The notes under the pieces were generated by a model. The model did not search any database. It was not told the origin of the DNA and saw nothing but the letters and a program-made list of their open reading frames with translations. A DNA stretch of 64,000 nucleotides. It comes from a virus. Taxonomy: Duplodnaviria > Caudoviricetes. Of this stretch, positions 42,120 to 57,471 are shown one piece after another. The stretch lies in IMG/VR virus record IMGVR_UViG_3300037067_013742, positions 128,001-192,000 of that record; one strand, given 5' to 3'. Numbering within the stretch: position 1 is the stretch's first letter; every line of letters begins with the position of its first letter. The translations under genes and the position numbers were made by a program.

Positions 42120-42991
42120 TAGCGCTCCTGATAGGTTCCGAGGTAAACGTGCCTTGTTTGGGTAGGATCAACATTCCCCTGAGCGTCCATCTCGACTATG
42201 GCATAGCCCAGATCGATAGGGCTATAGTTACAGCCACCATCTTCTTCATAATCCATCGGATAACATAAGGCGCCTTCATCAATTAAAAGGCTTCCGTTAC
42301 GGTATGGGATTGTTCCGACCCTGTGGCTGTGGCCAGAGACGAGACACTGAAACTGAGTCCCTCTGTTAAGGAACCAGTTTGCAACATGGATAGCGTTAGA
42401 CATTGGCGCCTTACTAAAACCACGAAGTCTATGGGCGAAGATTGTCTTTCCGATTCTAATCCACCAGCCTCCAGTCTCGTCTCCGGCATACATAACGTTT
42501 GGGAGGTCAATAGTTGGTAATTGCTCTCCCTTCTCGTTAAATCTTTCCCCGTTAGCCAGATGACGGAGAGGGCTACCTTTAATAAGAAATTGTATTGTTG
42601 GGTTTAGCTTTCCAAGTTCTCGTGAGAATCTTCCGGCGTCGTGATTGCCATCGACTAAGATGACTCTGCCAAAGTGCTGGGCAGCTAGTCTAACGATGTC
42701 GCTGTTTGCCGAGTACTCTACGGCAAAGGGGATCTCTTTGCTCTTTGGAAATTGAGATATGAGGTTGCAATCAAACATATCTCCATTAATTACGAGGTAC
42801 TCCGCGCCAGAATACCTCTCGATTATGTCTTGTACCAAATCCTCTCTAACGAATGGTGTATGCAAATCTGAGATTGAGATTACTCTAATTCGCTTGCGGC
42901 CGATTGGGTGAAGCCTTGCTTCTTCTAAGTTTTGTAGCTTCTGTCTGTAGGCGTCACAATAGCGTTGTACTTTCTCTAACTTAGACATCAT
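42119..42991 (-). CDS. Calcineurin-like metallophosphoesterase
   Basis: SDLH, NGD, GNHD, H, GHSH. Confidence 0.85.
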   Translation of the reverse strand: MMSKLEKVQRYCDAYRQKLQNLEEARLHPIGRKRIRVISISDLHTPFVREDLVQDIIERYSGAEYLVINGDMFDCNLISQFPKSKEIPFAVEYSANSDIVRLAAQHFGRVILVDGNHDAGRFSRELGKLNPTIQFLIKGSPLRHLANGERFNEKGEQLPTIDLPNVMYAGDETGGWWIRIGKTIFAHRLRGFSKAPMSNAIHVANWFLNRGTQFQCLVSGHSHRVGTIPYRNGSLLIDEGALCYPMDYEEDGGCNYSPIDLGYAIVEMDAQGNVDPTQTRHVYLGTYQER

Positions 42992-44013
42992 CCCTCAGTT
43001 CTCAAAAGACTTCTTTTAATGATGGCCGATGCAAAATCTCTAGATTTCCCCTTTCGGCCAGGTAGGACTCGGAGGGCACCCATAAATAAAGGATATTTCA
43101 AATCCCACTCGCTGTCACTACCGATGTTCACAAGGTCAAACTTTTGGCCAACGATGACTGCGTATTGAACTTCCGCTTGTCCGGTTTCGTCATCTTCAGC
43201 TTCTCCGCCTCCAGACTTAGTAATATCTACCTTACCCGATATAGCATAAATGTTACCTACCTGTAGTTGGTCCTGAAGCTTCTCCCACATCTTTGGGAAG
43301 ATGACGACTTCGATACTAGCTGTCTTATCCTCTACCCTAACCTTTGCCATAAGTGTCTTCTTGCGAGTATTTATAATCTTTAGGGATGAAAGGATCCCGG
43401 TTATAAGAACCTTAGCATCTTGGTCTTCTCGCTTAACTAAATAGATCGGGACACTACTCTCTGGGACTTTTATCTCGTCAAGTGGGTGGCCAGAAATATA
43501 AGCATTTAAAAGCTCTCTTTGGTTTCGTAATCGTTCTCTTGGAGATAACGCGATTCTCTGTCGTGGTGGCTCCTGGGGTGGCTTGGGCTCGTCCTCCTCA
43601 TAGGAGGGAGGAGGCGGGGTTTCCTTTAGTATGAGTACTGGCTTACCGGGTTCCTTAGAAGTACTACTCGGATTTTTCGCCAGTCGGTCTTCCCATCTAC
43701 GATGCTTTTCTTGATACTCAAGAAGCTTCTCTTCATATCGTATCGTCTTCTCTTTATTTTTCTCGGCGATACTAGTGACTAGGTCAGAATACTTTCGCTG
43801 GGAGGATTCCTTCTGGTGAGTAAACCGTTCTAGTTTGTCTTTATAGGAGGCTAGGCCTCTCCTATATGTAACAAACTCCTTTGCATATTCAGCGGCCTCA
43901 AGCTCATTCATATCTTCTATAGAAGAGAAAGCACCAGCCTTACCTAAAACCTCTGCTGCCTTGGAGTTTATGTCTGTTTTTTCTAAGAGATCCTTTATAG
44001 AGTCAAATCTCAA
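42988..44013 (-). CDS. dnaE: DNA polymerase III alpha piece 4 (end of HhH region plus OB fold)
   Basis: FDSIKDL...KAGAF, YISGHPLD, MAKVRVEDKT..IEVVIFP. Confidence 0.85.
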   Translation of the reverse strand: MRFDSIKDLLEKTDINSKAAEVLGKAGAFSSIEDMNELEAAEYAKEFVTYRRGLASYKDKLERFTHQKESSQRKYSDLVTSIAEKNKEKTIRYEEKLLEYQEKHRRWEDRLAKNPSSTSKEPGKPVLILKETPPPPSYEEDEPKPPQEPPRQRIALSPRERLRNQRELLNAYISGHPLDEIKVPESSVPIYLVKREDQDAKVLITGILSSLKIINTRKKTLMAKVRVEDKTASIEVVIFPKMWEKLQDQLQVGNIYAISGKVDITKSGGGEAEDDETGQAEVQYAVIVGQKFDLVNIGSDSEWDLKYPLFMGALRVLPGRKGKSRDFASAIIKRSLLRTEG

Positions 44014-44423
44014 GTTTCCTCCGCATCTCTAAACTCTACTATCTTTTCCGCCATTGCTCGTGGCATTCCTTTGATATGACCTAACCCAAATCTTATAGCT
44101 TTGCCCTCTGGCTGATGGTCGACTCCAGATAGATTTATGTCTGGGGGTAGTATCTTTATTCCCATCCCCTTTGCGGACATTACGTACTGGATTATTTTGT
44201 CGTCGTCAGTTTCGTGAGTTAGCATTGCCGCATGGTAATGAACAGGGTGGTTAGCTTTTAGATAAGCGGTCCACATAGTTAAGTAGGCGTAAGCCACGCT
44301 ATGGGAGTTTCCGGAGATTACCCCATTGGCAAGAGCAAAGTTATGTTGCTCTCCTCTCATCCTGAGATTGAAAGTGTCTTCGATTCCCACCAGCTTAACT
44401 GAGCAAACTTTTAGCTTTTTCAT
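44010..44423 (-). CDS. dnaE: Split-intein C fragment fused to DnaE piece 3
   Basis: 39-aa IntC then SHSVAYAYL...YLKANHP, ILPPDINLS, IRFGLGHIKG. Confidence 0.9.
   Translation of the reverse strand: MKKLKVCSVKLVGIEDTFNLRMRGEQHNFALANGVISGNSHSVAYAYLTMWTAYLKANHPVHYHAAMLTHETDDDKIIQYVMSAKGMGIKILPPDINLSGVDHQPEGKAIRFGLGHIKGMPRAMAEKIVEFRDAEET
44307..44423 (-). mobile_element. Split intein C fragment (39 aa)
   Basis: MKKLKV...TFNL...HNFALANGVISGN followed by Ser. Confidence 0.9.
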
Positions 44424-45249
44424 ATTTCCTTACTAGTCTTAATCCATCTGAATCTTGATAGAGATACTGAATGATGAGGCGACAATCATCCTCACGGCTC
44501 CACTCTACATATGATAAGAGGGGACTACTTTGTTTGGCTGTCGGAAATTCGTAGGAGACCCCAAGAACCAGATGGAGTAAAAGAGATACTTGAGCCGTAA
44601 GGTATCGACTGCCCAAAAATCGGACACAGACCTTAGTTCCTGTCGAGTGTATATAAATACTCCCATCTCCATCAAGGTTTCCTCGTAAGACATGCGACTG
44701 GAAGATGGGGCTAACTATTGGAAGAACTTCCCTTCCTGTTTTTGCTTGAATAACTCCAAGGTTTCCCAGATCGCGGACCATTCTCGACGAAGAAACAATA
44801 AGCTGCGCCTGCTCTTGAGCCACTGAATAGTGGCCTTGTGAGAATTGTTTTTCGCGTGATGGGATGAGGCAGATTGATGAATTAGTACAAGTTTCTGTCT
44901 TTAGAAGATCAACAACCCACTGGTCACATCGAGCTAGTCTTATCCCGACTTGTAGCGGAGGATGAACCCAACCATCAGCAACAAGGAATCCTAGCAAATA
45001 AGCCTTTTCCTTAGTATCAATACTGGAGAAGTATTCGTGCTTTGTGGGCGAGTAATCTGTAACTCCACTTTTTCGGGGGATCTCCCATCTCCTTAAGATA
45101 TCGTAGATGGTCTTTGTCGTTTTTACCTTATGGTTAAGCTGCTCTAAAATCTTGTTTGCGGAGCATCCACTTTTATAAAGGGTAACGACGAGCTCTTCAT
45201 CGGCCGGTGTAATTATTCGACTTGGATATAGTCTTCGTTCGTGTGACAT
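44395..45249 (-). CDS. Free-standing LAGLIDADG endonuclease between split-intein halves
   Basis: YLLGFLVADG and VLRGNLDGDG. Confidence 0.85.
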   Translation of the reverse strand: MSHERRLYPSRIITPADEELVVTLYKSGCSANKILEQLNHKVKTTKTIYDILRRWEIPRKSGVTDYSPTKHEYFSSIDTKEKAYLLGFLVADGWVHPPLQVGIRLARCDQWVVDLLKTETCTNSSICLIPSREKQFSQGHYSVAQEQAQLIVSSSRMVRDLGNLGVIQAKTGREVLPIVSPIFQSHVLRGNLDGDGSIYIHSTGTKVCVRFLGSRYLTAQVSLLLHLVLGVSYEFPTAKQSSPLLSYVEWSREDDCRLIIQYLYQDSDGLRLVRKYEKAKSLLS

Positions 45250-45263
45250 AGTCTGAACAGATA

Positions 45264-46964
45264 TTAATCGGCAATCGAAATGATGTCAAGGTCTAGATCA
45301 AGTATTTCTCTTAGTGGGCGTTTTATCATATCGCCACAAAGGAACTGATGGTCCATTGTACAGGTTACTAAAGACCCGTCTGATAGCTCTATCTCGTAAA
45401 CTTCTTGCTTTCCAGTAGGGATAACTTCGAGACATTGATCTTGAACAATCTCGCGCTGTGAGTTGTAGCTAAGAAGTTCTGGTAGTTCGGTCTTGCCTAA
45501 TACAGAAAGTTGACCAATAGTCTTAGGTAGCCAATGTACACGAGGCTCTTGCTTACCAGGAAGCCAGGGACTGTCATGTGTTTTGACTAAGACCTCCGTA
45601 TTGGCAGAGAGGCAGGCATTAAATAGGTATTGGCCATAGTCCTTTAGCTGATCAAAAAGCTTCTCGGCCTGTATCTTGGTAAGCCCACCCTCTATCGCGC
45701 CAGCTATAAACTTGGGGGCTTCTGCGGCTAGCTTGTCTTGTTGCTTTTTGCCGAGCATCTTCATCACGGCATACGACTCTGGTGAAGTATAGCCACATAA
45801 ATCAGTGCAGATCTTCATAACCTGCTCTTGAAATACGACTACATTATAAGTAGGGGATAAGATCTTTCGCATGGTGTCGTTTAAGTAGACTGGGTCTTCT
45901 TTCCCCGAACGCGCATTGGCATATTGGTCAACTTGTCCGCTCGAGAGGGGACCAGGACGAAAGAGGGCTGAGGCAACGGAAAGGTCGTGGATGTTTTTTG
46001 GCTGGATCGCGACACAAAGCTCTTTAATTCCCTCTGAGCCACCTAGTTGGAATATACCGTCTAGATCCCCACGACAAATTAGGTCGTAGGCGGCCGGGTC
46101 TCCATCAGAGAGCTGTTCTAGATCAATATCGATATCTTCTCTCTTGAGAAGGTCTACACAAGTCTGGATGACTTTTAGAGTGCTGAGACCAAGGATGTCA
46201 AACTTTATAAGACCCGTCCGTTCTAGGTCTCTATAGTCAAACTGAGACGTTGGGTTGTCATCTTTGCCACGGTACAAGGGAACAAAATTGGTTACTTCTT
46301 CTGGTGCTATAACGACACCGCCAGCGTGGGTACCGTGCGACCTAACAATACCCCAAAGTTTTCTGACTATCTCAATAACGTCGGCGTATTTACTATCTAG
46401 TAGCTTAGGCGAGACTTTAGCCTCGTCGTCAAAGGAGGTCCACAGACCGGCAACTGGAGGGGGGACTAACTTTGCTAGCTCATCAGTAAACTCTCTAGGC
46501 TTATCTAGTACGCGGCATATATCTCTTATTGCCGATTTGGTTCGCATGAAACCAAGGGTCCCAACCCTAGCGACCTTGTTTTTTCCGTAACGGCTCTCTA
46601 GGTATGAGATTATTAGATCTCTATCAGAGGTATCGTAATCAATATCTGGTGGCGAGGCCCTGTCCTTTGACATAAATCTCTCGAAGGGGAGATCAAACTT
46701 AATTGGATCTACTAGAGTGATACCAAGGACATAAGCTAGTAATGACCCAGCTACCGATCCTCTGCCCGGCGCGGGAACGAGTCCCTGTTTCCTAACAAAG
46801 GAAGCTATATCCCAAACGATAAGGAAATAGGATGAGAAACCCAGGTGCTCAATAGTTTCTAGTTCAAAGTTTAATCTGTTTAAATATTCTAGGTTATCGC
46901 CGAAGCCTAAATCGTTTAGTCCTTGGTAGGCTTTTTTCCTTAGTAGTACTGTATTACTATCCAT
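45264..46964 (-). CDS. dnaE: DnaE piece 2 (catalytic palm/fingers) fused to split-intein N fragment
   Basis: YFLIVWD, GRGSVAGS, FERF, PPDIDYD, HAGGVVI, KFDILGL, RPGP, FQEQVM; start moved to ATG 46964 (TAATG overlap). Confidence 0.92.
   Translation of the reverse strand: MDSNTVLLRKKAYQGLNDLGFGDNLEYLNRLNFELETIEHLGFSSYFLIVWDIASFVRKQGLVPAPGRGSVAGSLLAYVLGITLVDPIKFDLPFERFMSKDRASPPDIDYDTSDRDLIISYLESRYGKNKVARVGTLGFMRTKSAIRDICRVLDKPREFTDELAKLVPPPVAGLWTSFDDEAKVSPKLLDSKYADVIEIVRKLWGIVRSHGTHAGGVVIAPEEVTNFVPLYRGKDDNPTSQFDYRDLERTGLIKFDILGLSTLKVIQTCVDLLKREDIDIDLEQLSDGDPAAYDLICRGDLDGIFQLGGSEGIKELCVAIQPKNIHDLSVASALFRPGPLSSGQVDQYANARSGKEDPVYLNDTMRKILSPTYNVVVFQEQVMKICTDLCGYTSPESYAVMKMLGKKQQDKLAAEAPKFIAGAIEGGLTKIQAEKLFDQLKDYGQYLFNACLSANTEVLVKTHDSPWLPGKQEPRVHWLPKTIGQLSVLGKTELPELLSYNSQREIVQDQCLEVIPTGKQEVYEIELSDGSLVTCTMDHQFLCGDMIKRPLREILDLDLDIISIAD
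45267..45614 (-). mobile_element. Split intein N fragment (116 aa)
   Basis: CLSANTEV..., GKQEVYEIELSDGS, TMDHQF (block B TxxH), acidic C-terminus then stop. Confidence 0.9.
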
Positions 46965-47905
46965 TAATCCTCGTCTATTTCTCCCACTAAGAACTGTCCA
47001 CAAGCTGCCATAATCTCGCTACCTGGCGAGGCCTGAACTTTAACCTTTTTTAAATCTCTAGTGAGCCGCTTGGCGATTTTGTCAAACTTAGAAGACTCCT
47101 GAAAAGGAGAACCATTACAGTGGTTGTATCGAAGTAGTCTGAATTCGCAGTCTTCTAATCTCGTGGCCATTAGGTCTACTACGGCATCTATCTCTTTCTC
47201 AGAATCGTTCACGTCTTCGAGTAGTAGGTGATGCACGATCATCCCTGTCCCGTCCAAAAAGTGGTGCAACCTTGAAAGTTTTTCTATGACATCTCTACTA
47301 CCAGGTATCAAGAAGTTTCTAGTTTCTGGTACTGCGGACATCAGCGAGACAAAGAACCTAACCATTGGTCTATCAAGACTCGATAGCCGTTTTAGTTCTT
47401 TGTTGTATAGGTGATACCTTTGTAGATAGTCATTAAGACCTCTTATATCTGCTATAGAGATAGCAGAGGGGAGGCTGGTCCCGATGTCAATTGTATCTAG
47501 AGAAGAAGCTAGCCCCTCTTCTAAAACATGGGAGATTATAAGCTGGGAGATTACTCCAACCATCTCTCGATGGAGTAGTGGCTCTCCCATGCTCATCCAG
47601 GAGAGCTTCAGCGCCTTCTCTTTTGCGGCGGGTACCTCCGTCGTAAAGTTTTGAATAGCCTCATTTATGTTAGCGACGGTACTAACTCTGTCTACTGGTT
47701 TATAACTAGTCCCTTTTGTATGAAGCATACAGAACTTACAGTTCATCTGACATCCGTAGGATGACGAGACGAAGACTGTGTACTTATCTCTTGCTTGTTT
47801 ACTAACGCCTCTATCGCAATTTGATAGAAGTTTAATGGCTGTCTCTGTCCCGTTAGAGTGGATATACTTATAGACTTCTCTATTTTCCGTGTGCAGAACT
47901 TTCAA
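46964..47905 (-). CDS. RlmN/Cfr-like radical SAM protein
   Basis: VSSSYGCQMNCKFC, MSMGEP, DVNDS, AACGQ. Confidence 0.8.
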   Translation of the reverse strand: MKVLHTENREVYKYIHSNGTETAIKLLSNCDRGVSKQARDKYTVFVSSSYGCQMNCKFCMLHTKGTSYKPVDRVSTVANINEAIQNFTTEVPAAKEKALKLSWMSMGEPLLHREMVGVISQLIISHVLEEGLASSLDTIDIGTSLPSAISIADIRGLNDYLQRYHLYNKELKRLSSLDRPMVRFFVSLMSAVPETRNFLIPGSRDVIEKLSRLHHFLDGTGMIVHHLLLEDVNDSEKEIDAVVDLMATRLEDCEFRLLRYNHCNGSPFQESSKFDKIAKRLTRDLKKVKVQASPGSEIMAACGQFLVGEIDED

Positions 47906-47906
47906 A

Positions 47907-48743
47907 CTATAGCCTCCATTGCGAATCTCCTATTGTAAGACATTGGTGCGGACATCCAACTGGATCGTTCCCACTAGGGCCAGTAGCACAAGATGAAAAG
48001 CATGGCCATGCATTTGGGATAAGTAGTCCGGCTGTTCTCTGGTTGTCTAATCTACCAGAAATAGGAGATAGGTGTCGGTGGTACTGGCTTTGGTCTACTA
48101 GATTCCATAAAGGAGAAGTTCTAAAAAGTCTTATCGGGGTTTCGAGGATGGGGATTTGGGCTTCGGCCGCCAGGATAATAAGCTCTTCTTGTTTTGCGTC
48201 GAGAGTATTACCTTGGGGAAATTTGGCTGTATTTAGCCGAAGGGAGGTTCTAAGTCCGGCTGTATTAGCCTTAAATAGATTAATAAGCCTGCTTAGTTGT
48301 GGCTCATTGGAAGCTAGGGCCGAAGTAGAGACTTGAACTATGGCTTCACTTTTTAGGAGCTTTGTAAGGATTGTGTCCTGTAATTCCGTATAGATCTTCG
48401 TTACGATCACGGGAGTCTTTCCATGATCGTGAAGTATCTCGCAGACTCTTGCAGAGGTTTTCCAGTTTAGGGAGGGATCAGAAATGCATCCAACTCTGAT
48501 CCAGGGGAGGCTATAGTTCTTTAACTGCCGCGAAAGAAACTTCTCGTCTAGGGGTCTCTTTACTGGATGAAAGAAATTAATCCCAACGCGGGCAGCTCCC
48601 TTGGCTGCATAGCAAGGGGCATCCTTCAGTTCGCATCCTGGGCAGCCACGATGAACGTCTATCGTTCCTGCTTCGCCTGTCTTCTTGTTATGTTGGATTG
48701 CAATCTTGGTGGGGCAGTAGTACTTCGAATTGTTTTGAGCCAT
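47907..48743 (-). CDS. Radical-SAM-like protein with atypical Cys spacing
   Basis: RGCPGCELKDAPCYA, RVGCISDP, IVTK (SPL-like); extra C-terminal Cys cluster. Confidence 0.5.
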   Translation of the reverse strand: MAQNNSKYYCPTKIAIQHNKKTGEAGTIDVHRGCPGCELKDAPCYAAKGAARVGINFFHPVKRPLDEKFLSRQLKNYSLPWIRVGCISDPSLNWKTSARVCEILHDHGKTPVIVTKIYTELQDTILTKLLKSEAIVQVSTSALASNEPQLSRLINLFKANTAGLRTSLRLNTAKFPQGNTLDAKQEELIILAAEAQIPILETPIRLFRTSPLWNLVDQSQYHRHLSPISGRLDNQRTAGLLIPNAWPCFSSCATGPSGNDPVGCPHQCLTIGDSQWRL

Positions 48744-48845: not shown

Positions 48846-49208
48846 TTAGCCGGTACCAACCTCTCCGTATAGGAGCTGGGGAGTGCGAGGATCTATCTCC
48901 ACTCCTAGTTTCTTTGCCTCTCTTATAAAGAGCTCTCGGAGCTGTGATAAGGTAAGGTTTTGTTCTAAAAGCTTCTCAATAGGAATGCCGATATAGGAGG
49001 GTTCGTCTCCACCAAGAACTTCTATAGTCGTTTCCACGGCTACATCAAAGACTCCATGGCCACTGTAGCATTCATTATCTTCCCAGTCGGGTATAAGAAC
49101 TTCCAGTAATTCTTGGAATTTTCTCCCCTCCCGGCTATATCCAGATAGTCCAACTATCATAAAGCTAGAGCTGCTTGAGTTACTTACCAACCCGTTTCTT
49201 ATCTTCAT
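48846..49208 (-). CDS. SNSSS-motif family protein 1
   Basis: MKIRNGLVSNSSSSSF. Confidence 0.75.
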   Translation of the reverse strand: MKIRNGLVSNSSSSSFMIVGLSGYSREGRKFQELLEVLIPDWEDNECYSGHGVFDVAVETTIEVLGGDEPSYIGIPIEKLLEQNLTLSQLRELFIREAKKLGVEIDPRTPQLLYGEVGTG

Positions 49209-50092
49209 TCTACTTTCCTCACTAACCTTGCTCGACCTCTTCTCTGGCCATCGAGACCAACATTTTTAGCCCTCATAGTTTCAAGAGCTTCTTTTTGGGC
49301 TGCGCCAATAAAGTTATCTATAAATGATATTGGAACAGACTTTCCAGAAACTAACTTATTGAGTAATGGCATTACAGTCTTTTCTTTCTTAATGAATGTC
49401 CAGTCTTCATGTAAACCCGTTACTCCGTTCCAAAGGAGTATCCTAATCGTTTCTGGGATAACTGAGGCAAGGTTAGCTGGTAGCGTGTTTCTCTTAAGGA
49501 TTTCACCTAAGATCCATGCCCTATAGATTCTAAAGCTGCCAAATAGAGATGTGCTGTTACCATCTAAACACTTAGATGTTCTTATCAATGCTTTTATAGC
49601 GCCTCTAGGAAGAGCAATAGCGTGCTCAAAGGCTTGAAGTTCTTCTTCCGTAAGGCTGGCGCAAACTTTTGGTGGTAGGTTTAGATCCCTTTTGCTATCT
49701 GTTGGAGTAGTCATTATGTCATATGCTTGTGATGGGTCTAGTACTATTGGTGCTTTGTCGAAGCCAAAAGTGCCTCTTGCGCATTTCCATCCGTAACTTT
49801 CGAGGGATTTTATTACATCGTTGTACTTTGTCTCGGCCACTTCTTTATTAAGGGGGATCCACCTTGTTGTCGTTTCGCCGTCAGAGAGGGTAACTTCATA
49901 GAGGGTCTTTCCGTCATATTCAAACCTTGATAAGGATACCCTCTTCTGCTGCGAAATAAGACTGTGGGTATAAGTAGCCTCCTTCTCGCAGAATGGTGCA
50001 TGGGATTGGTAGAAGGGGCTTCTGACTATCTTCTCTTTGGGCTCGATGACTCCCCAAGATACAGGGATAGTAGTATTCTTTGACTTTTCCAC
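49205..50092 (-). CDS. Hypothetical protein
   Basis: 295-aa ORF coupled to neighbours. Confidence 0.55.
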   Translation of the reverse strand: MEKSKNTTIPVSWGVIEPKEKIVRSPFYQSHAPFCEKEATYTHSLISQQKRVSLSRFEYDGKTLYEVTLSDGETTTRWIPLNKEVAETKYNDVIKSLESYGWKCARGTFGFDKAPIVLDPSQAYDIMTTPTDSKRDLNLPPKVCASLTEEELQAFEHAIALPRGAIKALIRTSKCLDGNSTSLFGSFRIYRAWILGEILKRNTLPANLASVIPETIRILLWNGVTGLHEDWTFIKKEKTVMPLLNKLVSGKSVPISFIDNFIGAAQKEALETMRAKNVGLDGQRRGRARLVRKVE

Positions 50093-50096
50093 CAGA

Positions 50097-50999
50097 TCAC
50101 ACCTGAACGATAGGTGCTCTTGCTGCTACCTCAGAGATGGTTGCCGCTACTTGCGTTGGCTTGTTCTGAGCTGCGGCTTTCTGATCTGCCTTGTAAGCGG
50201 CCATTACGAATGAAGCCCTAAGCTTCCTAATGCCGGAGATATCTACTTCAGAGAGAACCGTATCTATCGCCTGATTCTTCTTCTCTACCTTCTTACAAAG
50301 GTCTCTAGCAATCTTCCTAGCCTGCTTAACAACAGTCTTTACCTCGGAGGCTACTTCGTCAGTAACGATAGAGTCAAAGTGTCTTGCGTCGGCGATTGCT
50401 ACCCTAATGAGCTCGGCTCTTACCCTAGCTAGAATAGCGTTCTTTTCAGTGTCTGGGAGCTCGACAATTGCTTCTGGGGTCATGCTCTTTAGGAACCTAA
50501 CAGGGGCTCTCCTGAGCGCTTCTAGGTCACTTTGCGTTAGGGCCTTGTCTACAGAGTCGGCAATCTCTGCGATGTGGTCGGCGATAGCAGCAATAGCAGC
50601 CTGGTTGTTCTCGTCAATCTCGAAGAAGCCCCAGCGAGCGGCGATCTCACAGGTACTGGCCTTATTGTTAAAGGCATCTATATCGGTCCTAATCTCTGTG
50701 ATGATCTCCTTAAGTTCCTTCTCTCGACTGCGAGGACAGATCAGTCCGACTGATGTTGTTACACAAAGTCGACGAAGCTTTGCGTATGCAACGGAGATTA
50801 CGTTGGTACGCTCCTTGTACTCATCCTCGTTATCGATGATGGAGAAGGTCTTCCATTCACGAATGCGCTTCTTATCTTCTAGATAGTTTTCTAGAACCTC
50901 ACGCTTATAGTGAATACCACCCTGACGATGCAGCCATTCTGTAACCAAGATACCGGGCTTGATCTTCTGAATCTCAAACTGAACTTCTGCTTCACTCAT
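50097..50999 (-). CDS. Hypothetical helical protein downstream of AAA ATPase
   Basis: 300-aa ORF overlapping the AAA stop. Confidence 0.6.
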   Translation of the reverse strand: MSEAEVQFEIQKIKPGILVTEWLHRQGGIHYKREVLENYLEDKKRIREWKTFSIIDNEDEYKERTNVISVAYAKLRRLCVTTSVGLICPRSREKELKEIITEIRTDIDAFNNKASTCEIAARWGFFEIDENNQAAIAAIADHIAEIADSVDKALTQSDLEALRRAPVRFLKSMTPEAIVELPDTEKNAILARVRAELIRVAIADARHFDSIVTDEVASEVKTVVKQARKIARDLCKKVEKKNQAIDTVLSEVDISGIRKLRASFVMAAYKADQKAAAQNKPTQVAATISEVAARAPIVQV

Positions 51000-52680
51000 C
51001 TTTCTTCTCCTCTAGTTTATCCAATGAGATAGCCCTCCTCTTTTTAATCGGGGCAATCTCTCCCATCTGAGGGGGCACAGCCTTTAGCTTAACGAGGGTT
51101 GATTTCTCTGTAGAGATTACTTCCGATGCACTTCTGGCACTTCTACTTGCCCATTCCCTAAGGGCTTTAATTGGCTCTGCCATCATCTCACTGAGAGGAC
51201 AGCTAGCCTTTGCTCTTATAGCTATGTCTTCTCCAGTAACGTCTCTACCGTCATCAAATGCGGCCCACATTCCATCTAGGATGGAGCACTCTATCTCTGC
51301 TCCAGAAAATCCTTCTGTTGCGGAGACGATCTGGTTTACGGACTTTTCACTAAGGACTCGCCCTCTCTTCGAGAGGTGAATCTTTATTATCTCGACTCTC
51401 TCTTTCTCGGTTGGGAGATCGACGAAAAAGATTTCATCCCATCTACCCTTTCTAAGAAGCTCTGGCGGAAGGTCGGATACGTCATTACCAGTGGCAACTA
51501 AGAATGCGCCGCCAGGTCTTTCCTGGAACCAGTGGAGGAATCCACCTGTTAGGGCATCGCTGGTACCTCCGTCAGAGTTTCGCTCTCCCTGTTTTGCGAA
51601 GCTTCGGCCGATCTCGTCGAGCCATAGGCAACAGTGTCCAATACCTTCAATTGAGGCCTTAACAGTCCTGATATTTTTCTCTGTATCTCCGACGATTCCA
51701 CCCTTCATATCATGGGGACTAAATCGAATTAGCGGGAGGTTTAGAGATGAGGCAATGGCCTTAGCGCATAAAGATTTTCCGGTACCCTGCACGCCCAAAA
51801 GTAGGATTCCACGGGGAATTGGGAGGCCATACTCTCTTGCCTCCTTCTGAAACCCTCTCTTCCTCTGATTGATCCACTGCTTTATTCCGGCAAGACCGCC
51901 AACGCTGTCAATGTCTGGTCTACTTCGTTCGAATGTAAGTCCGGGAACAGAAGAAATTTGCTCTGTCTTTATCTCGTAGATAAAGGTAACGTCTATCTCC
52001 CCTAATGTCGCAACGCTTCTTGCAACAGCATCAGAAGCCTGCGTCATTGTAAGGCCGCGACAAGCTTCTATTAGCTCTTCTGTTTTTGGAAAGTCTTCTA
52101 GCCCGTAGGTTGGAAGAACATCCTTCTTTATAAGGTTTGTAAGAGCTTCCTTATCTGGGAGTCCAGGATGGATTATATGAACGTCTACCTCTAGTTCTGG
52201 AGGGAGCTTGTCCATTGGAGAGATGAAGACTATTGTTGTTACGCTATCTTTTAGTTCTCTGGCTGCATCTCTAATCATTCTAACGAATGACTTTTCAGAC
52301 TCGAAGAAGACGTGGGCATCTCGAAAGATTGCAATGGTCTTTAGAGCAACTTGCTCTTCGACCGCGGCATTCTCAAGATCGTTGTCTTCTCGGATAGATA
52401 GAGCGTGATCGATAACACTTCTAATCGCGGCGGCCGGATCGGTTTGCATCTCCTTATTAAAAGGGCATTCCCTATCTTCCTTTGGAACTCCAACTGGTAG
52501 TTCCCAACCTGGCCCGCCACCATTTGATGTGAGAGACCAGACCCATACTTGTCCTCCTAAGGGTAGAACCCAGTTGGCAATACCACTTTCTGCTCGTAAC
52601 TCTTCTTGTGTTACAAACCAGACGACTGGGATTCTTGCTCCGTCACAAATCTTTATCTCTCTAATGAACTCTGACGTCAT
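50992..52680 (-). CDS. Ycf46-like AAA+ ATPase
   Basis: TQEELR N-terminus, GVQGTGKS, LWLDEI, LPPELLRKGRWDEIFFVDLP, GFSGAEIE, LREWA. Confidence 0.85.
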   Translation of the reverse strand: MTSEFIREIKICDGARIPVVWFVTQEELRAESGIANWVLPLGGQVWVWSLTSNGGGPGWELPVGVPKEDRECPFNKEMQTDPAAAIRSVIDHALSIREDNDLENAAVEEQVALKTIAIFRDAHVFFESEKSFVRMIRDAARELKDSVTTIVFISPMDKLPPELEVDVHIIHPGLPDKEALTNLIKKDVLPTYGLEDFPKTEELIEACRGLTMTQASDAVARSVATLGEIDVTFIYEIKTEQISSVPGLTFERSRPDIDSVGGLAGIKQWINQRKRGFQKEAREYGLPIPRGILLLGVQGTGKSLCAKAIASSLNLPLIRFSPHDMKGGIVGDTEKNIRTVKASIEGIGHCCLWLDEIGRSFAKQGERNSDGGTSDALTGGFLHWFQERPGGAFLVATGNDVSDLPPELLRKGRWDEIFFVDLPTEKERVEIIKIHLSKRGRVLSEKSVNQIVSATEGFSGAEIECSILDGMWAAFDDGRDVTGEDIAIRAKASCPLSEMMAEPIKALREWASRSARSASEVISTEKSTLVKLKAVPPQMGEIAPIKKRRAISLDKLEEKKDE

Positions 52681-52692
52681 TACTCTTCTCTC

Positions 52693-53115
52693 CTAAAAGG
52701 CCTTGATTAGCTTTAGCTTGATGTTCTTCCCGTCAATTTTCTTCTCTACTCTATATCCCCGTCCTAACTTCTTTGCCTCTGCTTCATACTTTGCACAAGC
52801 TGCATGCTGGAGGAAGGTTTCGGATTTCTTCCGCCACCATTTCTGATCATAGTCAGAAACATGCACAGTTATCTTTCCATCCTTCTTCTCGAAGCCAATG
52901 TCATTCGAGGCTCCACCCGAAAGGAGCTTGTTAACATTAGCTCTACGGACTATCACATTGGCCTTTTGTCCACGCTTGCTTCCCTCGTAACCAACTAGGC
53001 TTTGGGGGATGTCGTGTATCTCTATCATTTCAGCGGGGATACCAATAGCAAGAAGTCCTTCGATTACATAGTCTATCTCTGTAATGTCTATTACAACTAT
53101 TTTGTAGGCGCTCAT
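52693..53115 (-). CDS. DUF1257/Ycf35-like protein
   Basis: GYEG..., SNDIGF, DY motifs; position upstream of Ycf46-like ATPase. Confidence 0.65.
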   Translation of the reverse strand: MSAYKIVVIDITEIDYVIEGLLAIGIPAEMIEIHDIPQSLVGYEGSKRGQKANVIVRRANVNKLLSGGASNDIGFEKKDGKITVHVSDYDQKWWRKKSETFLQHAACAKYEAEAKKLGRGYRVEKKIDGKNIKLKLIKAF

Positions 53116-53303
53116 TAGGCACCAACCTTTGTTGGGTTTTTTACCTTGGTCTTTGGCGTTTCTTTCTTGCGGCGATGCTCTATAACTTCTCCAAGTGAAT
53201 CAATCCACTTGGAAAGCATTTCGCAAGCATCTCCTTCAACACCAAATACTTCAGCCGTACTCTTGCCGCCAGGCTCAATGGTTATTTCTATTGTATGTTT
53301 CAT
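53115..53303 (-). CDS. DUF2997-like small protein
   Basis: IEITIEPGG...GVEGDAC....LG. Confidence 0.65.
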   Translation of the reverse strand: MKHTIEITIEPGGKSTAEVFGVEGDACEMLSKWIDSLGEVIEHRRKKETPKTKVKNPTKVGA

Positions 53304-53306
53304 TTA

Positions 53307-53660
53307 TCAGCCACCGTCAGATACACAAAAGCTAGAGCACTCATCGGGCTCGAATCCAGCAATGAAATCATTTATGCAAGATGACACGACGCCATAATGA
53401 TCGTCATCTTCTTCGTCGTCCTCTGGTTTTGGGAGCTCTATTTGGTCCCACAGAGAGTCACCACCAGCAGTAGAAAAATCTTTGATAACTACGCACTGGA
53501 TTCCAAAGACTATTGCGTCCTCTGTTGTAACCGCCTGATTTACAATAAATCTGGTCTTCGGATCTGTTTCGGAGAACTTCTTATCGAAGGCATCCTTTCG
53601 CATAATACATACGAAGGAGGATGAGCTGCTGTTACTAACTAGGCTTCGTCTAATCTTCAT
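53307..53660 (-). CDS. SNSSS-motif family protein 2
   Basis: MKIRRSLVSNSSSSSF. Confidence 0.75.
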   Translation of the reverse strand: MKIRRSLVSNSSSSSFVCIMRKDAFDKKFSETDPKTRFIVNQAVTTEDAIVFGIQCVVIKDFSTAGGDSLWDQIELPKPEDDEEDDDHYGVVSSCINDFIAGFEPDECSSFCVSDGG

Positions 53661-53662
53661 GC

Positions 53663-53818
53663 TTACCTCTTTTGTTCAATGATAGTCAGAAGTGCCTTAA
53701 GGGCAGTAACCGGTGAATCTCCAAGGCCTTCTTCTGGAACGATCCAATCTTCATCAACCCAGGCGGACCAGCATTGTCGGTCATAAGACCAAGCAATGTT
53801 AAATGTATAATCTGGCAT
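53663..53818 (-). CDS. Small HicB-like protein (51 aa, not in ORF track)
   Basis: GGAG SD; W.A.V...GLGDSPVTAL pattern. Confidence 0.4.
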   Translation of the reverse strand: MPDYTFNIAWSYDRQCWSAWVDEDWIVPEEGLGDSPVTALKALLTIIEQKR

Positions 53819-53826
53819 TCTATCTC

Positions 53827-54279
53827 CTAGAAACTATGGCCCAAGGGAAGGATCCTACTGTCTTCTCCAGTAAGGATAACGACATATGGGCCTTTAGACT
53901 CTGGGTTTAGTTCCATTATCTCGTTCATCCCACAGAGCGAGCAGATTCCATCCCAGGCAGATATGTTTCGTTCGTCATTTGGAATTAGGATTCTAGCAAA
54001 TCCAGATTCTGGGAATCTTATGTCCATCTGATGGAAGGTAAAGAACTCTGATGAGTTTTTATTCTCTACAATTAGGGTAACTGAGGCTGGAAAGTCGAGA
54101 AGGTCTTTCGGCGTCTGGTCTGGAAGACCCATAAATCCTCGAAGGAATTTATTAAACGTGGGCTGAAAGATAAAAGGTTCTGGCTCAGAAAAGACTGGGG
54201 CTTGTAGTAGTAGGAAGCTTGCTTTACAGATTAGATTAAACTTCTTTAGAACCTGGATCTCTATCTTGTTCGCCCGCAC
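53827..54279 (-). CDS. Hypothetical protein
   Basis: ORF in array. Confidence 0.5.
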   Translation of the reverse strand: MRANKIEIQVLKKFNLICKASFLLLQAPVFSEPEPFIFQPTFNKFLRGFMGLPDQTPKDLLDFPASVTLIVENKNSSEFFTFHQMDIRFPESGFARILIPNDERNISAWDGICSLCGMNEIMELNPESKGPYVVILTGEDSRILPLGHSF

Positions 54280-54448
54280 TTCCTACCTCCACTATCTGGA
54301 CACGAAGAGATCCTAGCTCTTCAAGTAAAAGATTCATAGACTCTCTCTCTTCGTAATGTCTTCGGCCTATTAACTCTTGCTTTCGTCTTTCGAGGATCAG
54401 GCACCTATCGTCTATGATTGCTAGGATTTGTTTGAATGATTTATTCAT
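54236..54448 (-). CDS. Hypothetical protein
   Basis: ATGA coupling to upstream gene. Confidence 0.45.
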   Translation of the reverse strand: MNKSFKQILAIIDDRCLILERRKQELIGRRHYEERESMNLLLEELGSLRVQIVEVGSAGEQDRDPGSKEV

Positions 54449-55197
54449 CGTATTGGTGTAACTACTTCCTTAATTGAGTCTTTCCACTGGATTCTAGGAG
54501 TATCTTTTAGCTCATTATAGATTCTAAAGATATGCTCGTCTCTCTGCCCCTCTTCTATTCTTTGAATTTCTTCCCTTGTAACGCCGCCAACCCTCTCGGC
54601 GATCTTATTCATCTTACCAATCCAGATATCTCCAGTACAGTAAGGATGGAGATACATGGCATCACTTACTACGTTAGGAGAATCTAGCATTGGCTCCATA
54701 GAGACAGAGGTTTTATATCCAAGGGTAAAAGCGGTTACCAGACAGGAGAACCTTTCTTCGAAAGGTGGAGCACCAGGTTCCCAGGTCTTTAGGATTTCAT
54801 TATTTCTACATCCAATAGTGAATCTAAAAACTACCTTATCTTTATAGTCTTCTAGACAATCATATAGCTGAAGCATACAGCTTAATCTTGGTTTGCTGGT
54901 AATGAGAACTTCATTCCCCGCGCCAAGAAGATTTAGTATTGCTCCCTTACATTCGGAGAAATTCTCTGGGAAAATATCATGCGCTGATGGGAACATTACG
55001 ATTCCGTCGTAGAGCTTACGTTCGTCCTTCTGATTTCTCTTTGAGCGGGGCATCTCAGTCCATTCGGCAAAAGTAGATATCTCTCGACGTAGAACGGCCA
55101 TCTTTCTTGAGTAACAGTATTGGCATCCGTTAGGACAATTGGTAGAACAGTTAATTCCCTTGCTTGCCCACTCATAAATTCCGGTTGTCTTCTTCAT
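54445..55197 (-). CDS. Radical SAM protein (DUF5131/Gp37-Gp68-like)
   Basis: W...NC..NCPNGCQYCY, SVSMEPML. Confidence 0.7.
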   Translation of the reverse strand: MKKTTGIYEWASKGINCSTNCPNGCQYCYSRKMAVLRREISTFAEWTEMPRSKRNQKDERKLYDGIVMFPSAHDIFPENFSECKGAILNLLGAGNEVLITSKPRLSCMLQLYDCLEDYKDKVVFRFTIGCRNNEILKTWEPGAPPFEERFSCLVTAFTLGYKTSVSMEPMLDSPNVVSDAMYLHPYCTGDIWIGKMNKIAERVGGVTREEIQRIEEGQRDEHIFRIYNELKDTPRIQWKDSIKEVVTPIR

Positions 55198-55212
55198 TTA
55201 TACTTTCCGATC

Positions 55213-55707
55213 TTAATGGTTATCGTTGTCTGTATGAATGTAGCTATCAGGAGAGAAGATAAATCTTTCTAGTTCCTCTGGGGAGTCAAACATCTTAATG
55301 TTTTGACCCTCTTCTGCGTTAGACTGATGATCTATATATCCGTAGGGTGATGAATTAAGTGGCTCATAATCATTAGTAAGATTCCACTCAATTTTCTTCA
55401 CTCCGAGGTTCTTCTTAAGAATAGCTTCTAGCATCTTTAGCCATTGATCAGCGATGTAATTAGTCTTCTTATCTTTCTTCCAGTCAGCTTGAGATCTTTT
55501 GCCGCAGATCTGTAGATAGGCAAAGTTGATTAGTGAGCCAAGATCTTTATGGTCTTCTGGCTCCCAACCAAACTCTGTCGTCCCGCCCAGGTCGTCCGGA
55601 ACCTGAAGAGTATCTTTCCCAAGTAGTACAACCTTGGGCCTCTTATTTCCAATGACTACAAAGGAACTGCTAGAGCTATTACTCACTAACCCGGTTCTAA
55701 TCTTCAT
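55213..55707 (-). CDS. SNSSS-motif family protein 3
   Basis: MKIRTGLVSNSSSSSF; EFGW, GYIDHQS, TDNDN. Confidence 0.75.
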   Translation of the reverse strand: MKIRTGLVSNSSSSSFVVIGNKRPKVVLLGKDTLQVPDDLGGTTEFGWEPEDHKDLGSLINFAYLQICGKRSQADWKKDKKTNYIADQWLKMLEAILKKNLGVKKIEWNLTNDYEPLNSSPYGYIDHQSNAEEGQNIKMFDSPEELERFIFSPDSYIHTDNDNH

Positions 55708-55719
55708 TAGCTTCCTCTA

Positions 55720-56190
55720 TCAGCCGTTATACCAAGCATCTTCATAGGTTCCAAACTTTATATCTGGACCAAGAGCCTCTTTTAGTGTGGCTTCTACCCT
55801 AGCCTTGAATTGGGCTCCAGTCTCATCATCCTTAACTGAGTCCCAGCTCTCTCCGAAGTAGAAGTAGTCTTCTCCCCTGCCCTTTTGATCCTGGCCTACG
55901 ACTTGGTTTAAGGTTTCTCCCAAGTCTTGACTTACATAAGTATCAATATCAGCATCAGTATATGGTTCTTCCCTAGGTGCGTCGTAGGGATAAGTCTTAC
56001 CTGGGTTATCCTTTAGCCACTGCTCTCGAAACTTTATGTTGCCTTGGACTTCATCGTTCATTGCCTGCAGAGTCTTAACTCGGTTGGCTACTGTTAGTAA
56101 CCTCAAAGCTTCCTTCTCGTTTAGACATACTCCATAAATTAAGAAGGAAGAGCTGCTGCTGTTACTGACCAAACCCTGTCTTATCTTCAT
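55720..56190 (-). CDS. SNSSS-motif family protein 4
   Basis: MKIRQGLVSNSSSSSF; KDDET..QFK.RV. Confidence 0.75.
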   Translation of the reverse strand: MKIRQGLVSNSSSSSFLIYGVCLNEKEALRLLTVANRVKTLQAMNDEVQGNIKFREQWLKDNPGKTYPYDAPREEPYTDADIDTYVSQDLGETLNQVVGQDQKGRGEDYFYFGESWDSVKDDETGAQFKARVEATLKEALGPDIKFGTYEDAWYNG

Positions 56191-56199
56191 TTGTATCTC

Positions 56200-56589
56200 C
56201 TATGAGTAAACCGTAAAGTCATGTAGCTCGCATTCGGTTCCCGGCCCAAAAAGCTCTACGGCTTCCTTATCCACCCGCTCCATAAACTCCGCCTTTGTCT
56301 CATCATCCTTCATGGAGTTAAAGGGGTGGTAGCCCCAATAGACATAGTCTTCATCGTCGGCAATAAAGCCTAGCTTGGCAAGAGCCTCTTCAGGAATGGC
56401 ATCAAGTAACTCCTCTGGGCTATACTCATAATAGCTCTTACCCAAAGCTACTCTTTGTATTGATAGAAGTTCTCGAAGCTTTCCTTCTTTTAGAACGGCG
56501 GCTATGGCCTCATTTAGATGCATCTCTACGCCATAAATTACATAGGATGAGGAGCTCGAGTTACTAACAAAAGAGTTTCTGATTTTCAT
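56200..56589 (-). CDS. SNSSS-motif family protein 5
   Basis: MKIRNSFVSNSSSSSY; KDDET..EFM.RV. Confidence 0.75.
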   Translation of the reverse strand: MKIRNSFVSNSSSSSYVIYGVEMHLNEAIAAVLKEGKLRELLSIQRVALGKSYYEYSPEELLDAIPEEALAKLGFIADDEDYVYWGYHPFNSMKDDETKAEFMERVDKEAVELFGPGTECELHDFTVYS

Positions 56590-56996
56590 TAGCGTGTTTT
56601 ATCCTTTACTAAAATTAGGTCTGGGGTTCTAATCTCTAAAGTCATCTTGCAGATGGCTTCTTCTATTCCCTCGCCATCATCTGATGCGGAGCCATACCAA
56701 ATCTTAAAGCCATTGTGGATTAGTGCTACGAACTCATCCAGAAGCTCATCTTCTTCACAACAGTAGTCTTCACCACAGAGGTCGGCTATTGTTGTATATG
56801 GCTGCTTGGCTTCTCCGTTCCATCTAGCTGTGACCTCTTGAAAGAAGAAGCTTGCCATCTCTTCTGCTAATGGTCTTAGTGGAGAGGTTTCTGGAACGTC
56901 AAAAGCCTCTAGAAGCTTTTCTTCTGATAGTTCTTTTGCGGCAATCCAAAAGGAGGAGCTACTACTATTGCTGACAAGACCATTTCTTATCTTCAT
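56589..56996 (-). CDS. SNSSS-motif family protein 6
   Basis: MKIRNGLVSNSSSSSF. Confidence 0.75.
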   Translation of the reverse strand: MKIRNGLVSNSSSSSFWIAAKELSEEKLLEAFDVPETSPLRPLAEEMASFFFQEVTARWNGEAKQPYTTIADLCGEDYCCEEDELLDEFVALIHNGFKIWYGSASDDGEGIEEAICKMTLEIRTPDLILVKDKTR

Positions 56997-57000
56997 ATTC

Positions 57001-57471
57001 TTATCCCTTTACGAACTTTAGGAAGTCTCTATAGGTCTTAAACCTGGTCTTTAGCTTTTCTATCTCATCAATAAGGTTTAGAGAAAATTTCTGGCATATA
57101 TGTGCTGTGTATTCGTGGTTATATAACTTCTTCCTTCTTCTATTGAGCTTCTTTACTTCTTCGAATACTTCCGCGCGGGGGATTTTGTATTCCTTTAGAA
57201 AGAAGGCCGAGAGGTCATTATGTGATGGAGCTTGCCACTGACAAACCGGGCAGTACCTTTCTGGAACGTCATCATTATCGAAATCGTATGATTCATTACT
57301 ATCATCGATCTCTTCTAGGAGATCCTCTTCGCAGATGTTGTGATCATTTATACAGCTGTAGGTCTTCTGATCTCCATAGTCTCCGTCCCAGCCTGTTAGG
57401 GTTTCGCCGCAAACGTCACAGGTGAAAGATGATGCACTGCTATTACTTACTAGTCCCCGACGTATCTTCAT
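57001..57471 (-). CDS. SNSSS-motif family protein 7 with Zn-finger-like Cys/His
   Basis: MKIRRGLVSNSSASSF; CDVC, C..DH..C, CPVC. Confidence 0.75.
   Translation of the reverse strand: MKIRRGLVSNSSASSFTCDVCGETLTGWDGDYGDQKTYSCINDHNICEEDLLEEIDDSNESYDFDNDDVPERYCPVCQWQAPSHNDLSAFFLKEYKIPRAEVFEEVKKLNRRRKKLYNHEYTAHICQKFSLNLIDEIEKLKTRFKTYRDFLKFVKG

Follow-up and report, generated by a model that had tools for sequence, protein, structure and literature searches.

Why do seven small proteins of one large phage, with bodies that are for the most part unrelated, begin with the same 16 amino acids? The question is raised by positions 48,846 to 57,471 of a 64,000-nucleotide stretch of viral DNA (called the window from here on), which comprises bases 128,001–192,000 of the 229,064-bp IMG/VR virus record IMGVR_UViG_3300037067_013742 (Duplodnaviria; Caudoviricetes), rated complete by CheckV. 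An initial annotation, made from the letters of the window, had pointed to seven minus-strand open reading frames (ORFs), five of them in tandem (55213-57471), that carry from residue 1 onward the motif MKIRx(G/S)(L/F)VSNSS(S/A)SS(F/Y), here called the tag. ORF and DNA-pattern scans confirmed them all: a degenerate DNA pattern for the motif has seven matches in the 229,064-bp genome, which are the seven ORFs, and its backwards control has none. A peptide scan of the whole genome added an eighth copy at genome position 208,988 and an ORF listing a ninth, both outside the window, which brings the genome total to nine; in all seven window copies and in both extra copies the motif starts with M at residue 1. 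The initial annotation also proposed a leader-peptide-like system in which three radical-SAM-type genes (SAM for S-adenosylmethionine) and an AAA+ ATPase gene, interleaved with the tagged genes, act on the tag. The analysis led us to another enzyme, a 373-residue cysteine-rich protein encoded elsewhere in the genome (enzyme E). We consider it rather probable that the tag is a detachable recognition element for E, which covalently alters it, and that the unrelated bodies travel behind it as cargo.

Is the tag conserved as a peptide or as a piece of repeated DNA? Among the seven window copies 11 positions are invariant (M1, K2, I3, R4, V8, S9, N10, S11, S12, S14 and S15). Over the first 16 codons the DNA is 67% identical (range 52–79%) and the protein 87%; the same codon is used in only 40% of same-residue pairs, and the serine run alternates between TCN and AGY codons. 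Low DNA and codon identity combined with high peptide identity means that selection acts on the peptide and that the tag is not a DNA repeat, as the initial annotation had argued. In 451 unique tags from about 135 phage loci, collected with a search pattern that fixed R4 and N10 and confined positions 8–16 to small residue classes while leaving S11 and S12 free to be T, K2 is found in 98%, S11 and S12 each in 100%, S15 in 99% and F16 in 96%. K2, S11-S12, S15 and an aromatic residue 16 are all retained in the seven window copies, and positions 13 and 14 tolerate T or A. The wider consensus is MKIRxGFVSNSSSSSF; in this lineage six copies have L, not F, at position 7. The proteins so tagged are an undescribed class, whose N-termini are matched in PHROGs: six of the seven paralogs hit phrog_7397, over positions 1–18 to 1–26 only, i.e., at the tag end. 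Full-text literature searches found no paper on the tag motif or on the pair of tag and enzyme.

An ordinary explanation would be that the seven proteins form one family of paralogs with a single small domain, in which the motif provides the first core strand and a ligand-binding loop. Removal of the tag from the 451 proteins left bodies that BLAST sorted into 167 clusters, of which 129 have a single member. The seven window bodies belong to six different clusters, only those of the ORFs starting at 56190 and 56589 (55720-56190 and 56200-56589) being related (BLAST E 4e-7, in the KDDET stretch), and all of them are acidic, with isoelectric points (pI) of 4.05–5.06; BLAST and pI values thus agree with the earlier description of mostly unrelated, acidic bodies with one KDDET-sharing pair. 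Profile-profile comparison with hhalign among the 14 largest body clusters gave at most 11.9% probability, and the tagged bodies span 45 to more than 1800 residues, with known unrelated domains among them.

The tagged protein with the most widespread body family, P0001 (164 residues; 55213..55707, minus strand; family in 40 of 50 loci), was modelled with AlphaFold2. It has full-length relatives with conserved EFGW, NFAYLQ, YIDHQS and DNDN motifs, and its family comprises 3229 representative clusters at E≤1e-3 and 300 at 1e-30. A model from 149 sequences, which superseded an earlier one from 12 sequences (predicted local distance difference test, pLDDT, 70), reached a pLDDT of 90 and a predicted template modelling score (pTM) of 0.87. 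The body starts at strand 16–18, and residues 1–11, the most conserved ones, average about 41. Since these residues are left unplaced in an otherwise confident model, the tag is not an ordinary core strand, and it is not part of one common fold. The initial annotation had named a single common domain with the motif as a core strand as part of the outcome that would speak against its idea; what was found are body families without profile similarity and a tag that is unpacked in the P0001 model. The fact that residues 16–18 do form the first strand of the P0001 body, and that its polar motifs YIDHQS and DNDN could form a site with the serine loop, speaks for a paralog family; given the diversity and size range of the bodies and the unpacked residues 1–11, we regard such a family as most improbable.

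Other searches with the tagged proteins were negative. Foldseek of the P0001 model against the PDB gave no match at E≤0.001, and the highest Z that VIA-align reached over 48,161 chains was 4.2, for helical hairpins only; this does not prove a new fold. Pfam found nothing above threshold on the seven paralogs, NCBIfam no match on 55213-55707 and PADLOC none on 55213-55707 and 57001-57471. GenBank phages gave no match either, whether by megablast of the region or by tblastn of 55213-55707, an outcome to which the low-complexity filter and the removal of the window's own record probably contributed.

Which protein, then, accompanies the tag? When IMG/VR was scanned for it, 56 loci (50 distinct) were obtained on phage contigs mostly of 50–350 kb, with 1–9 tagged ORFs each; one body family and the pattern FVSNSSSS had served to select them, and the linkage rates given below hold for that sample. 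Clustering of all ORFs of these loci, with the tags hidden, showed a single untagged family that is common, that of a protein of about 360 residues, present in 35 of the 50 distinct loci and absent from the slice of the window. By tblastn a homologue was located in the genome studied here at 207.5–208.6 kb, with E-values down to 3e-89. This is the gene of enzyme E (genome 207,491–208,610, minus strand; positions 4489-5610 of locus L068, which is genome 203,000–213,000). It lies outside the window, about 22 kb beyond the array, directly downstream of the two extra tagged genes, which encode proteins of 131 and 209 residues.

The linkage of E with the tag runs in both directions, as follows from counts made from either side. 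Starting from the tag, BLAST found a homologue of E within 10 kb in 33 of the 49 other distinct loci. For the loci L041/L042 and L047/L048 without a nearby E, the other locus of the same record carries one, and of ten further records without a nearby E seven encode it at another place; all five records with a completeness of at least 90% are among these seven. Starting from E, tagged ORFs were present in 76 of 80 loci chosen by the E alignment; they contain 323 tags, 322 of which are on the strand of E, and the reversed-translation control gave 0. Within the sample, the linkage at the level of the whole genome is close to complete, and the genome studied here, which has a homologue of E together with its tags, conforms to it. 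Because tag arrays can lie tens of kilobases from the enzyme, tests confined to the neighbourhood under-count the linkage. The idea of a shared recognition element on unrelated bodies is supported by this linkage and by the clustering of the bodies, and the leader-peptide-like arrangement read by a radical-SAM enzyme was right in kind, with one enzyme, E, for many substrates.

The same counts bear on the local genes that had been named as recognizing or processing the tag, the radical-SAM-like 46964-47905, 47907-48743 and 54445-55197 and the AAA+ gene 50992-52680 (all on the minus strand). They are interleaved with the tag array here and in a close relative (L008). Near the tags of the 49 other loci, homologues of the four were found by BLAST in 0–1; those of the AAA+ gene and of 54445-55197 occur in L008 only, a near-identical relative, and the remaining 48 distinct loci have none, as compared to 33 of 49 for E. 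Pfam Radical_SAM matches two of the three Cys-rich genes, both below threshold (25.4 and 20.4 bits; cut-off 29.5), and does not match 47907-48743, which has a C-x2-C-x7-C motif and no family match. The gene 46964-47905 is RlmN/Cfr-like (TIGR00048 74 bits, far below cut-off), and 54445-55197 resembles spore-photoproduct lyase and "radical SAM mobile pair B." The AAA+ gene belongs to a separate phage family. Hence two of the supposed three radical-SAM-type enzymes are backed by weak Pfam matches and the third by none, and although the tag does have a radical-SAM partner, linked both ways, it is not one of these genes; that any of the four acts on the tag is scarcely credible.

The AAA+ protein, of 562 residues, is extended at its N-terminus by a long segment. 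It scores strongly against phrog_8638 (374 bits), to which it belongs, and its matches to PADLOC IetA (69 bits) and NCBIfam IteA_antiphage (60 bits) show a resemblance to the anti-phage ATPase IetA/IteA. Further Radical_SAM matches lie at genome 17.4 kb and at about 22.2 kb of the window, within a glycan cluster, so that the phage has at least five radical-SAM-type genes, counting the three local genes, these two matches and E.

What kind of enzyme is E? Judged by its sequence, it is a very divergent radical-SAM/SPASM-like enzyme. Pfam Radical_SAM (PF04055) matches E with 17.0 bits and E 0.007, which does not reach the gathering threshold of 29.5; a genome scan at E≤0.01 missed E, and neither an NCBIfam cut-off nor that of another curated family was reached. 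Many relatives of E carry precomputed matches to PF04055 and/or PF13186 (SPASM), and their source name is "MoaA/NifB/PqqE/SkfB family radical SAM enzyme." When a profile of E was compared with the PDB sequences, the only solved radical-SAM chain touched was SkfB (E 0.27); matches to designer pentatricopeptide-repeat (PPR) proteins were spurious. In an alignment of 30 sequences the cluster motif of E is C76-x7-C84-x2-C87, with C84 and C87 invariant; the first cluster cysteine is found 3–13 residues upstream of C84, so that the three cysteines required are present. The alignment also shows a conserved N-terminal extension, YNYxFxxxxGFFARWGKxxxDDP, and four invariant cysteines in the C-terminal part, C274 (FDSCS), C303 (EPCES), C321 (FPCSF) and C366. 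The seven-cysteine motif of SPASM domains, CX9-15GX4C...CX2CX5CX3C...C, does not fit E. Four rather than seven C-terminal cysteines suggest that E carries one auxiliary cluster and would be twitch-like.

In L011, L029, L037 and L049 the gene of E consists of two ORFs separated by an inserted one (e.g., 6189-6689 and 7508-8500 in L029), and these look like intein or homing-endonuclease insertions. In another phage contig (L028 6579-8333) an ORF of 584 residues that clusters with the E family starts with a PP-loop-like SGGLDS sequence and adjoins tags of the form MKIRxDFVSNSSSSSF; it may be a fusion or an artefact of neighbouring genes.

For the encounter of E with the tag a complex was modelled with ESMFold2 from E (30-row alignment), two 4Fe-4S clusters, SAM and residues 1–45 of P0001 (149-row alignment). 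The interaction prediction score from aligned errors (ipSAE) was 0.75 (0.72, 0.75 and 0.77 in the runs), and all three controls gave 0.00. The runs share at least 81% of the contacts, and the pLDDT of the partner is at least 53. In a calibration without ligands or user alignments, the counts of which apply roughly to this model, the mark was reached by 58 of 80 solved complexes and by 2 of 110 mismatched pairs. Tag residues 1–20 are predicted to contact residues 42–49 and 53–57 of E, the "RWG...DDP" hairpin, which pairs with tag residues 1–6, and the barrel, where the contacts include Y88, Q120, A122, G124, N149, T151, Q198, H202, K238, G270-C274, C303-E304 and C321-F323. Tag residues 9–20 are modelled against invariant residues of the barrel and of the auxiliary cluster.

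The model supports binding, and E probably both grips the tag and alters it chemically. We propose that the free tag residues 1–8 (KIRxGFV) would add as a beta-strand to the "G-x-F-x-R-W-G" hairpin in the N-terminal extension of E, and that the docked strand would feed the invariant N10-S11-S12 and the rest of the serine run into the radical-SAM barrel, where E would make a covalent change on the tag. A single E would mature nine unrelated, mostly acidic small proteins, the bodies of which would be interchangeable cargo. Once matured, they would probably act as early effectors directed against the host; their position among replication-type genes fits such a role, which we put forward as a guess.

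The genomic linkage and the docking model would fit equally well if the tag were a handle only, i.e., if E docked it and modified a residue in the body or a small molecule, or if E were a non-catalytic hub or chaperone; the serine run would then merely be a small flexible linker that fits into the tunnel. Established systems for ribosomally synthesized and post-translationally modified peptides (RiPPs) do grip a conserved leader and modify a variable core, and the tolerance of tag positions 13 and 14 for T or A would be in keeping with a linker. However, the bodies have no motif in common that could be the modification site. N10, S11 and S12 are found in about 100% of the 451 tags (N10 because the search pattern demanded it, S11 and S12 although T was allowed there), a constancy uncommon in a simple linker, and it is residues 9–20 that are modelled against the invariant barrel and auxiliary-cluster residues of E. 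We therefore hold a pure handle to be unlikely.

Several points nevertheless weigh against an E that modifies the tag. Its Pfam Radical_SAM score is below cut-off (17 vs. 29.5 bits), and the first cluster cysteine is oddly spaced. Known leader-dependent maturases usually use the conserved piece as a handle and not as the altered site. Of the 37 invariant columns of E, 22 lie within the 60-residue interface where 6 are expected (p 1e-10), an enrichment that is not independent evidence because in any radical-SAM enzyme invariant positions are found along the barrel. The ipSAE is a measure of model confidence, and solved complexes of RiPP maturases with their peptides may help in placing any leader-like strand. 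In the phage studied here 22–32 kb separate E from seven of the nine tagged genes, and in three of the IMG/VR records, which are 21–79% complete, no E was found at all.

How far does the association of tag and E extend beyond the phages in IMG/VR? The DNA pattern of the tag matches at least 119 stretches of assembled bacterial and archaeal genomes, mostly metagenome-assembled genomes of Bacillota; the few isolates include Acetatifactor muris, Sporomusa and Veillonella parvula. A homologue of E (E about 1e-50) is encoded in 53 of 80 bacterial and archaeal 8-kb loci. The bacterial bodies are about 120 to more than 1800 residues long and include BspA-type leucine-rich repeat (LRR) arrays, HIRAN and BRCT domains. 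In bacteria the tag has mostly the sister form MKIRxDFVTNSSSSSF. When the tag form (G6/S9 vs. D6/T9) was compared with the columns of E, five columns discriminated, three of them within the predicted interface, a covariation that is not counted as evidence because the two forms are two clades.

Among GenBank phages, homologues of E were found in 172 records, nearly all of them T4-like phages of Klebsiella, Enterobacter, Cronobacter, Citrobacter and Escherichia. In Cronobacter phage GAP161 the homologue is GAP161_155, for which the annotation gives similarity to a radical SAM protein from RB16, and the tagged genes GAP161_106 and GAP161_111 sit 20–24 kb from it, in the same split layout as here. 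The cultured T4-like phages that carry both tag and E are those of the RB16/KP15/GAP161 group.

A constant N-terminus on tandem small phage genes is reminiscent of the internal proteins of T4, and the tag could be a signal for sorting or turnover, directing the proteins to the capsid, out of the cell or to a protease. The T4 capsid targeting sequence (CTS; IPI-III, Alt) is likewise a constant N-terminus of about 10–16 residues on small tandem genes that diverge rapidly. Also, the window encodes an AAA+ unfoldase, and a ClpP-like gene is directly upstream of two tagged genes. The tag has no sequence likeness to the CTS, does not end in a prohead-protease site as a CTS-like N-terminus does and lacks, as read from its sequence, the features of Sec and Tat signals and of a lipobox. 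What it is paired with is a radical-SAM enzyme, where the CTS has the prohead and its protease, and the tight linkage with such an enzyme would not be explained by sorting. Moreover, the tagged genes are situated among replication genes, and in bacteria the tag stands, beside E and without a capsid, at the start of LRR, HIRAN and BRCT proteins that reach more than 1800 residues. In the other tag loci ClpP is encoded in 0/49 and the AAA+ protein in 1/49, and on these comparative counts the idea of a ClpP/AAA+ degron was rejected. A sorting or turnover signal in general appears very unlikely.

The ClpP-family protease gene (L068 6655-7284; genome about 209.65–210.28 kb, outside the window; Pfam CLP_protease 82.7 bits) stands directly upstream of the eighth and ninth tagged genes and E and has a counterpart in none of the 49 other tag loci.

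The proposed action of E on the tag is closest to that of the radical-SAM SPASM/twitch maturases of RiPPs (SkfB, SuiB/StrB, CteB, PqqE, MftC), which, like E, have an auxiliary Fe-S domain at the C-terminus and are encoded together with several substrates that begin with the same conserved recognition sequence and diverge after it. The predicted beta-strand addition of the tag to the N-terminal extension of E would be another likeness, and the logic of one enzyme for many precursors is that of the prochlorosins. In contrast to RiPP precursors the substrates of E would be folded proteins of 117–209 residues (more than 1800 in bacteria) and not short peptides; one of them, P0001, does model as a folded domain. 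The constant part has just 16 residues and is at the very N-terminus, and neither E nor its neighbours gave, in family searches, a RiPP recognition element (RRE)/PqqD-like domain, a leader protease or an exporter.

The anaerobic sulfatase-maturating enzymes (anSME/AtsB) are radical-SAM/SPASM enzymes whose substrates are whole proteins, in which they act on the Ser or Cys of a short motif close to the N-terminus; the tag, for its part, is rich in serine. It lacks, however, the sequence (C/S)-x-(P/A)-x-R, the bodies are not sulfatases, E has four and not seven or eight invariant C-terminal cysteines, and no sequence match of E to anSME was found. In the VMAP ternary conflict systems, radical-SAM-SPASM genes stand beside variable effector genes and FxSxx-type peptides, for which modification was predicted (Kaur, Burroughs, Iyer, Aravind 2020, PMC7159879). 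Motif and context are different there, the peptides being processed by metallopeptidases in vWA-MoxR systems, and MKIRxGFVSNSSSSSF is not described in that work.

The tagged genes of the window are part of a minus-strand block that also contains DnaE, metallophosphoesterase and other replication-type genes. The first encodes a protein of 120 residues (48846..49208, minus strand), MKIRNGLVSNSSSSSF followed by an acidic body of pI 4.4 (body cluster n=3 in the phage loci examined), and the second one of 117 residues (53307..53660, minus strand), in which MKIRRSLVSNSSSSSF is followed by a very acidic body of pI 4.05 with 5 Cys. After P0001 come, all on the minus strand, the two paralogs with the KDDET..F..RV stretch, of 156 residues (55720..56190; body cluster n=36) and of 129 residues (56200..56589; MKIRNSFVSNSSSSSY), then a protein of 135 residues with an acidic body of pI 4.2 (56589..56996; body cluster n=11) and finally one of 156 residues (57001..57471; body cluster n=35). 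In the last, MKIRRGLVSNSSASSF is followed by CxxC pairs (7 Cys, Zn-ribbon-like), which are the Zn-finger-like ligands that the initial annotation had seen in one copy. Of the two tagged genes outside the window, that for 209 residues (L068 6010-6639; MKVRTGLVSNSSSASF) precedes that for 131 residues (L068 5618-6013; MKTRTSLVSNSSSTSF), the order on the minus strand being ClpP-like gene, 209-residue tagged gene, 131-residue tagged gene, E.

In the close relative L008 the array is kept at 71–99% identity with one extra tagged paralog, which indicates real genes with some turnover. The orthologue of 53307-53660 is 71% identical, and adjoining it is the extra paralog, of 109 residues (L008 12048-12377); the same place in the window (53663-53818) holds only an untagged ORF of 51 residues. 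The difference is a recent gain or loss inside the array.

In the same region of the window the reading frame of a DNA polymerase III alpha subunit (DnaE-like; 42988-47003, minus strand) appears to be in pieces (45264-47003, 44010-44423 and 42988-44013). An insert-like ORF of 284 residues (44395-45249) between them suggests an intein or homing-endonuclease insertion.

If E indeed modifies the tag, this would be a new post-translational chemistry, performed on whole proteins and not on peptides, and it would be in use by hundreds of large phages (for the P0001 bodies alone, 3229 representative clusters were counted at E≤1e-3), with a sister form of the tag widespread in gut Bacillota. We can imagine, more tentatively and with somewhat less than even confidence, that large phages, among them cultured T4-like ones of E. 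coli, Klebsiella and Cronobacter, and many Bacillota share an undescribed whole-protein maturation in which a radical-derived covalent change, made by one radical-SAM/twitch enzyme on the invariant N-S-S, arms or stabilizes a rapidly turning-over set of otherwise unrelated conflict proteins, small acidic effectors in the phages and LRR, HIRAN and BRCT sensors in the bacteria, on the two sides of the phage-host conflict. The pair of enzyme and 16-mer would be portable and might find use in protein engineering, and its presence in cultured phages of the RB16/KP15/GAP161 group, for which there are laboratory hosts, makes it directly testable. For the biology of these phages, modification of the tag by E would explain a large block of "hypothetical" early genes and would provide a simple sequence rule by which candidate effectors are recognized, namely any ORF that starts with MKIRxGFVSNSSSSSF.

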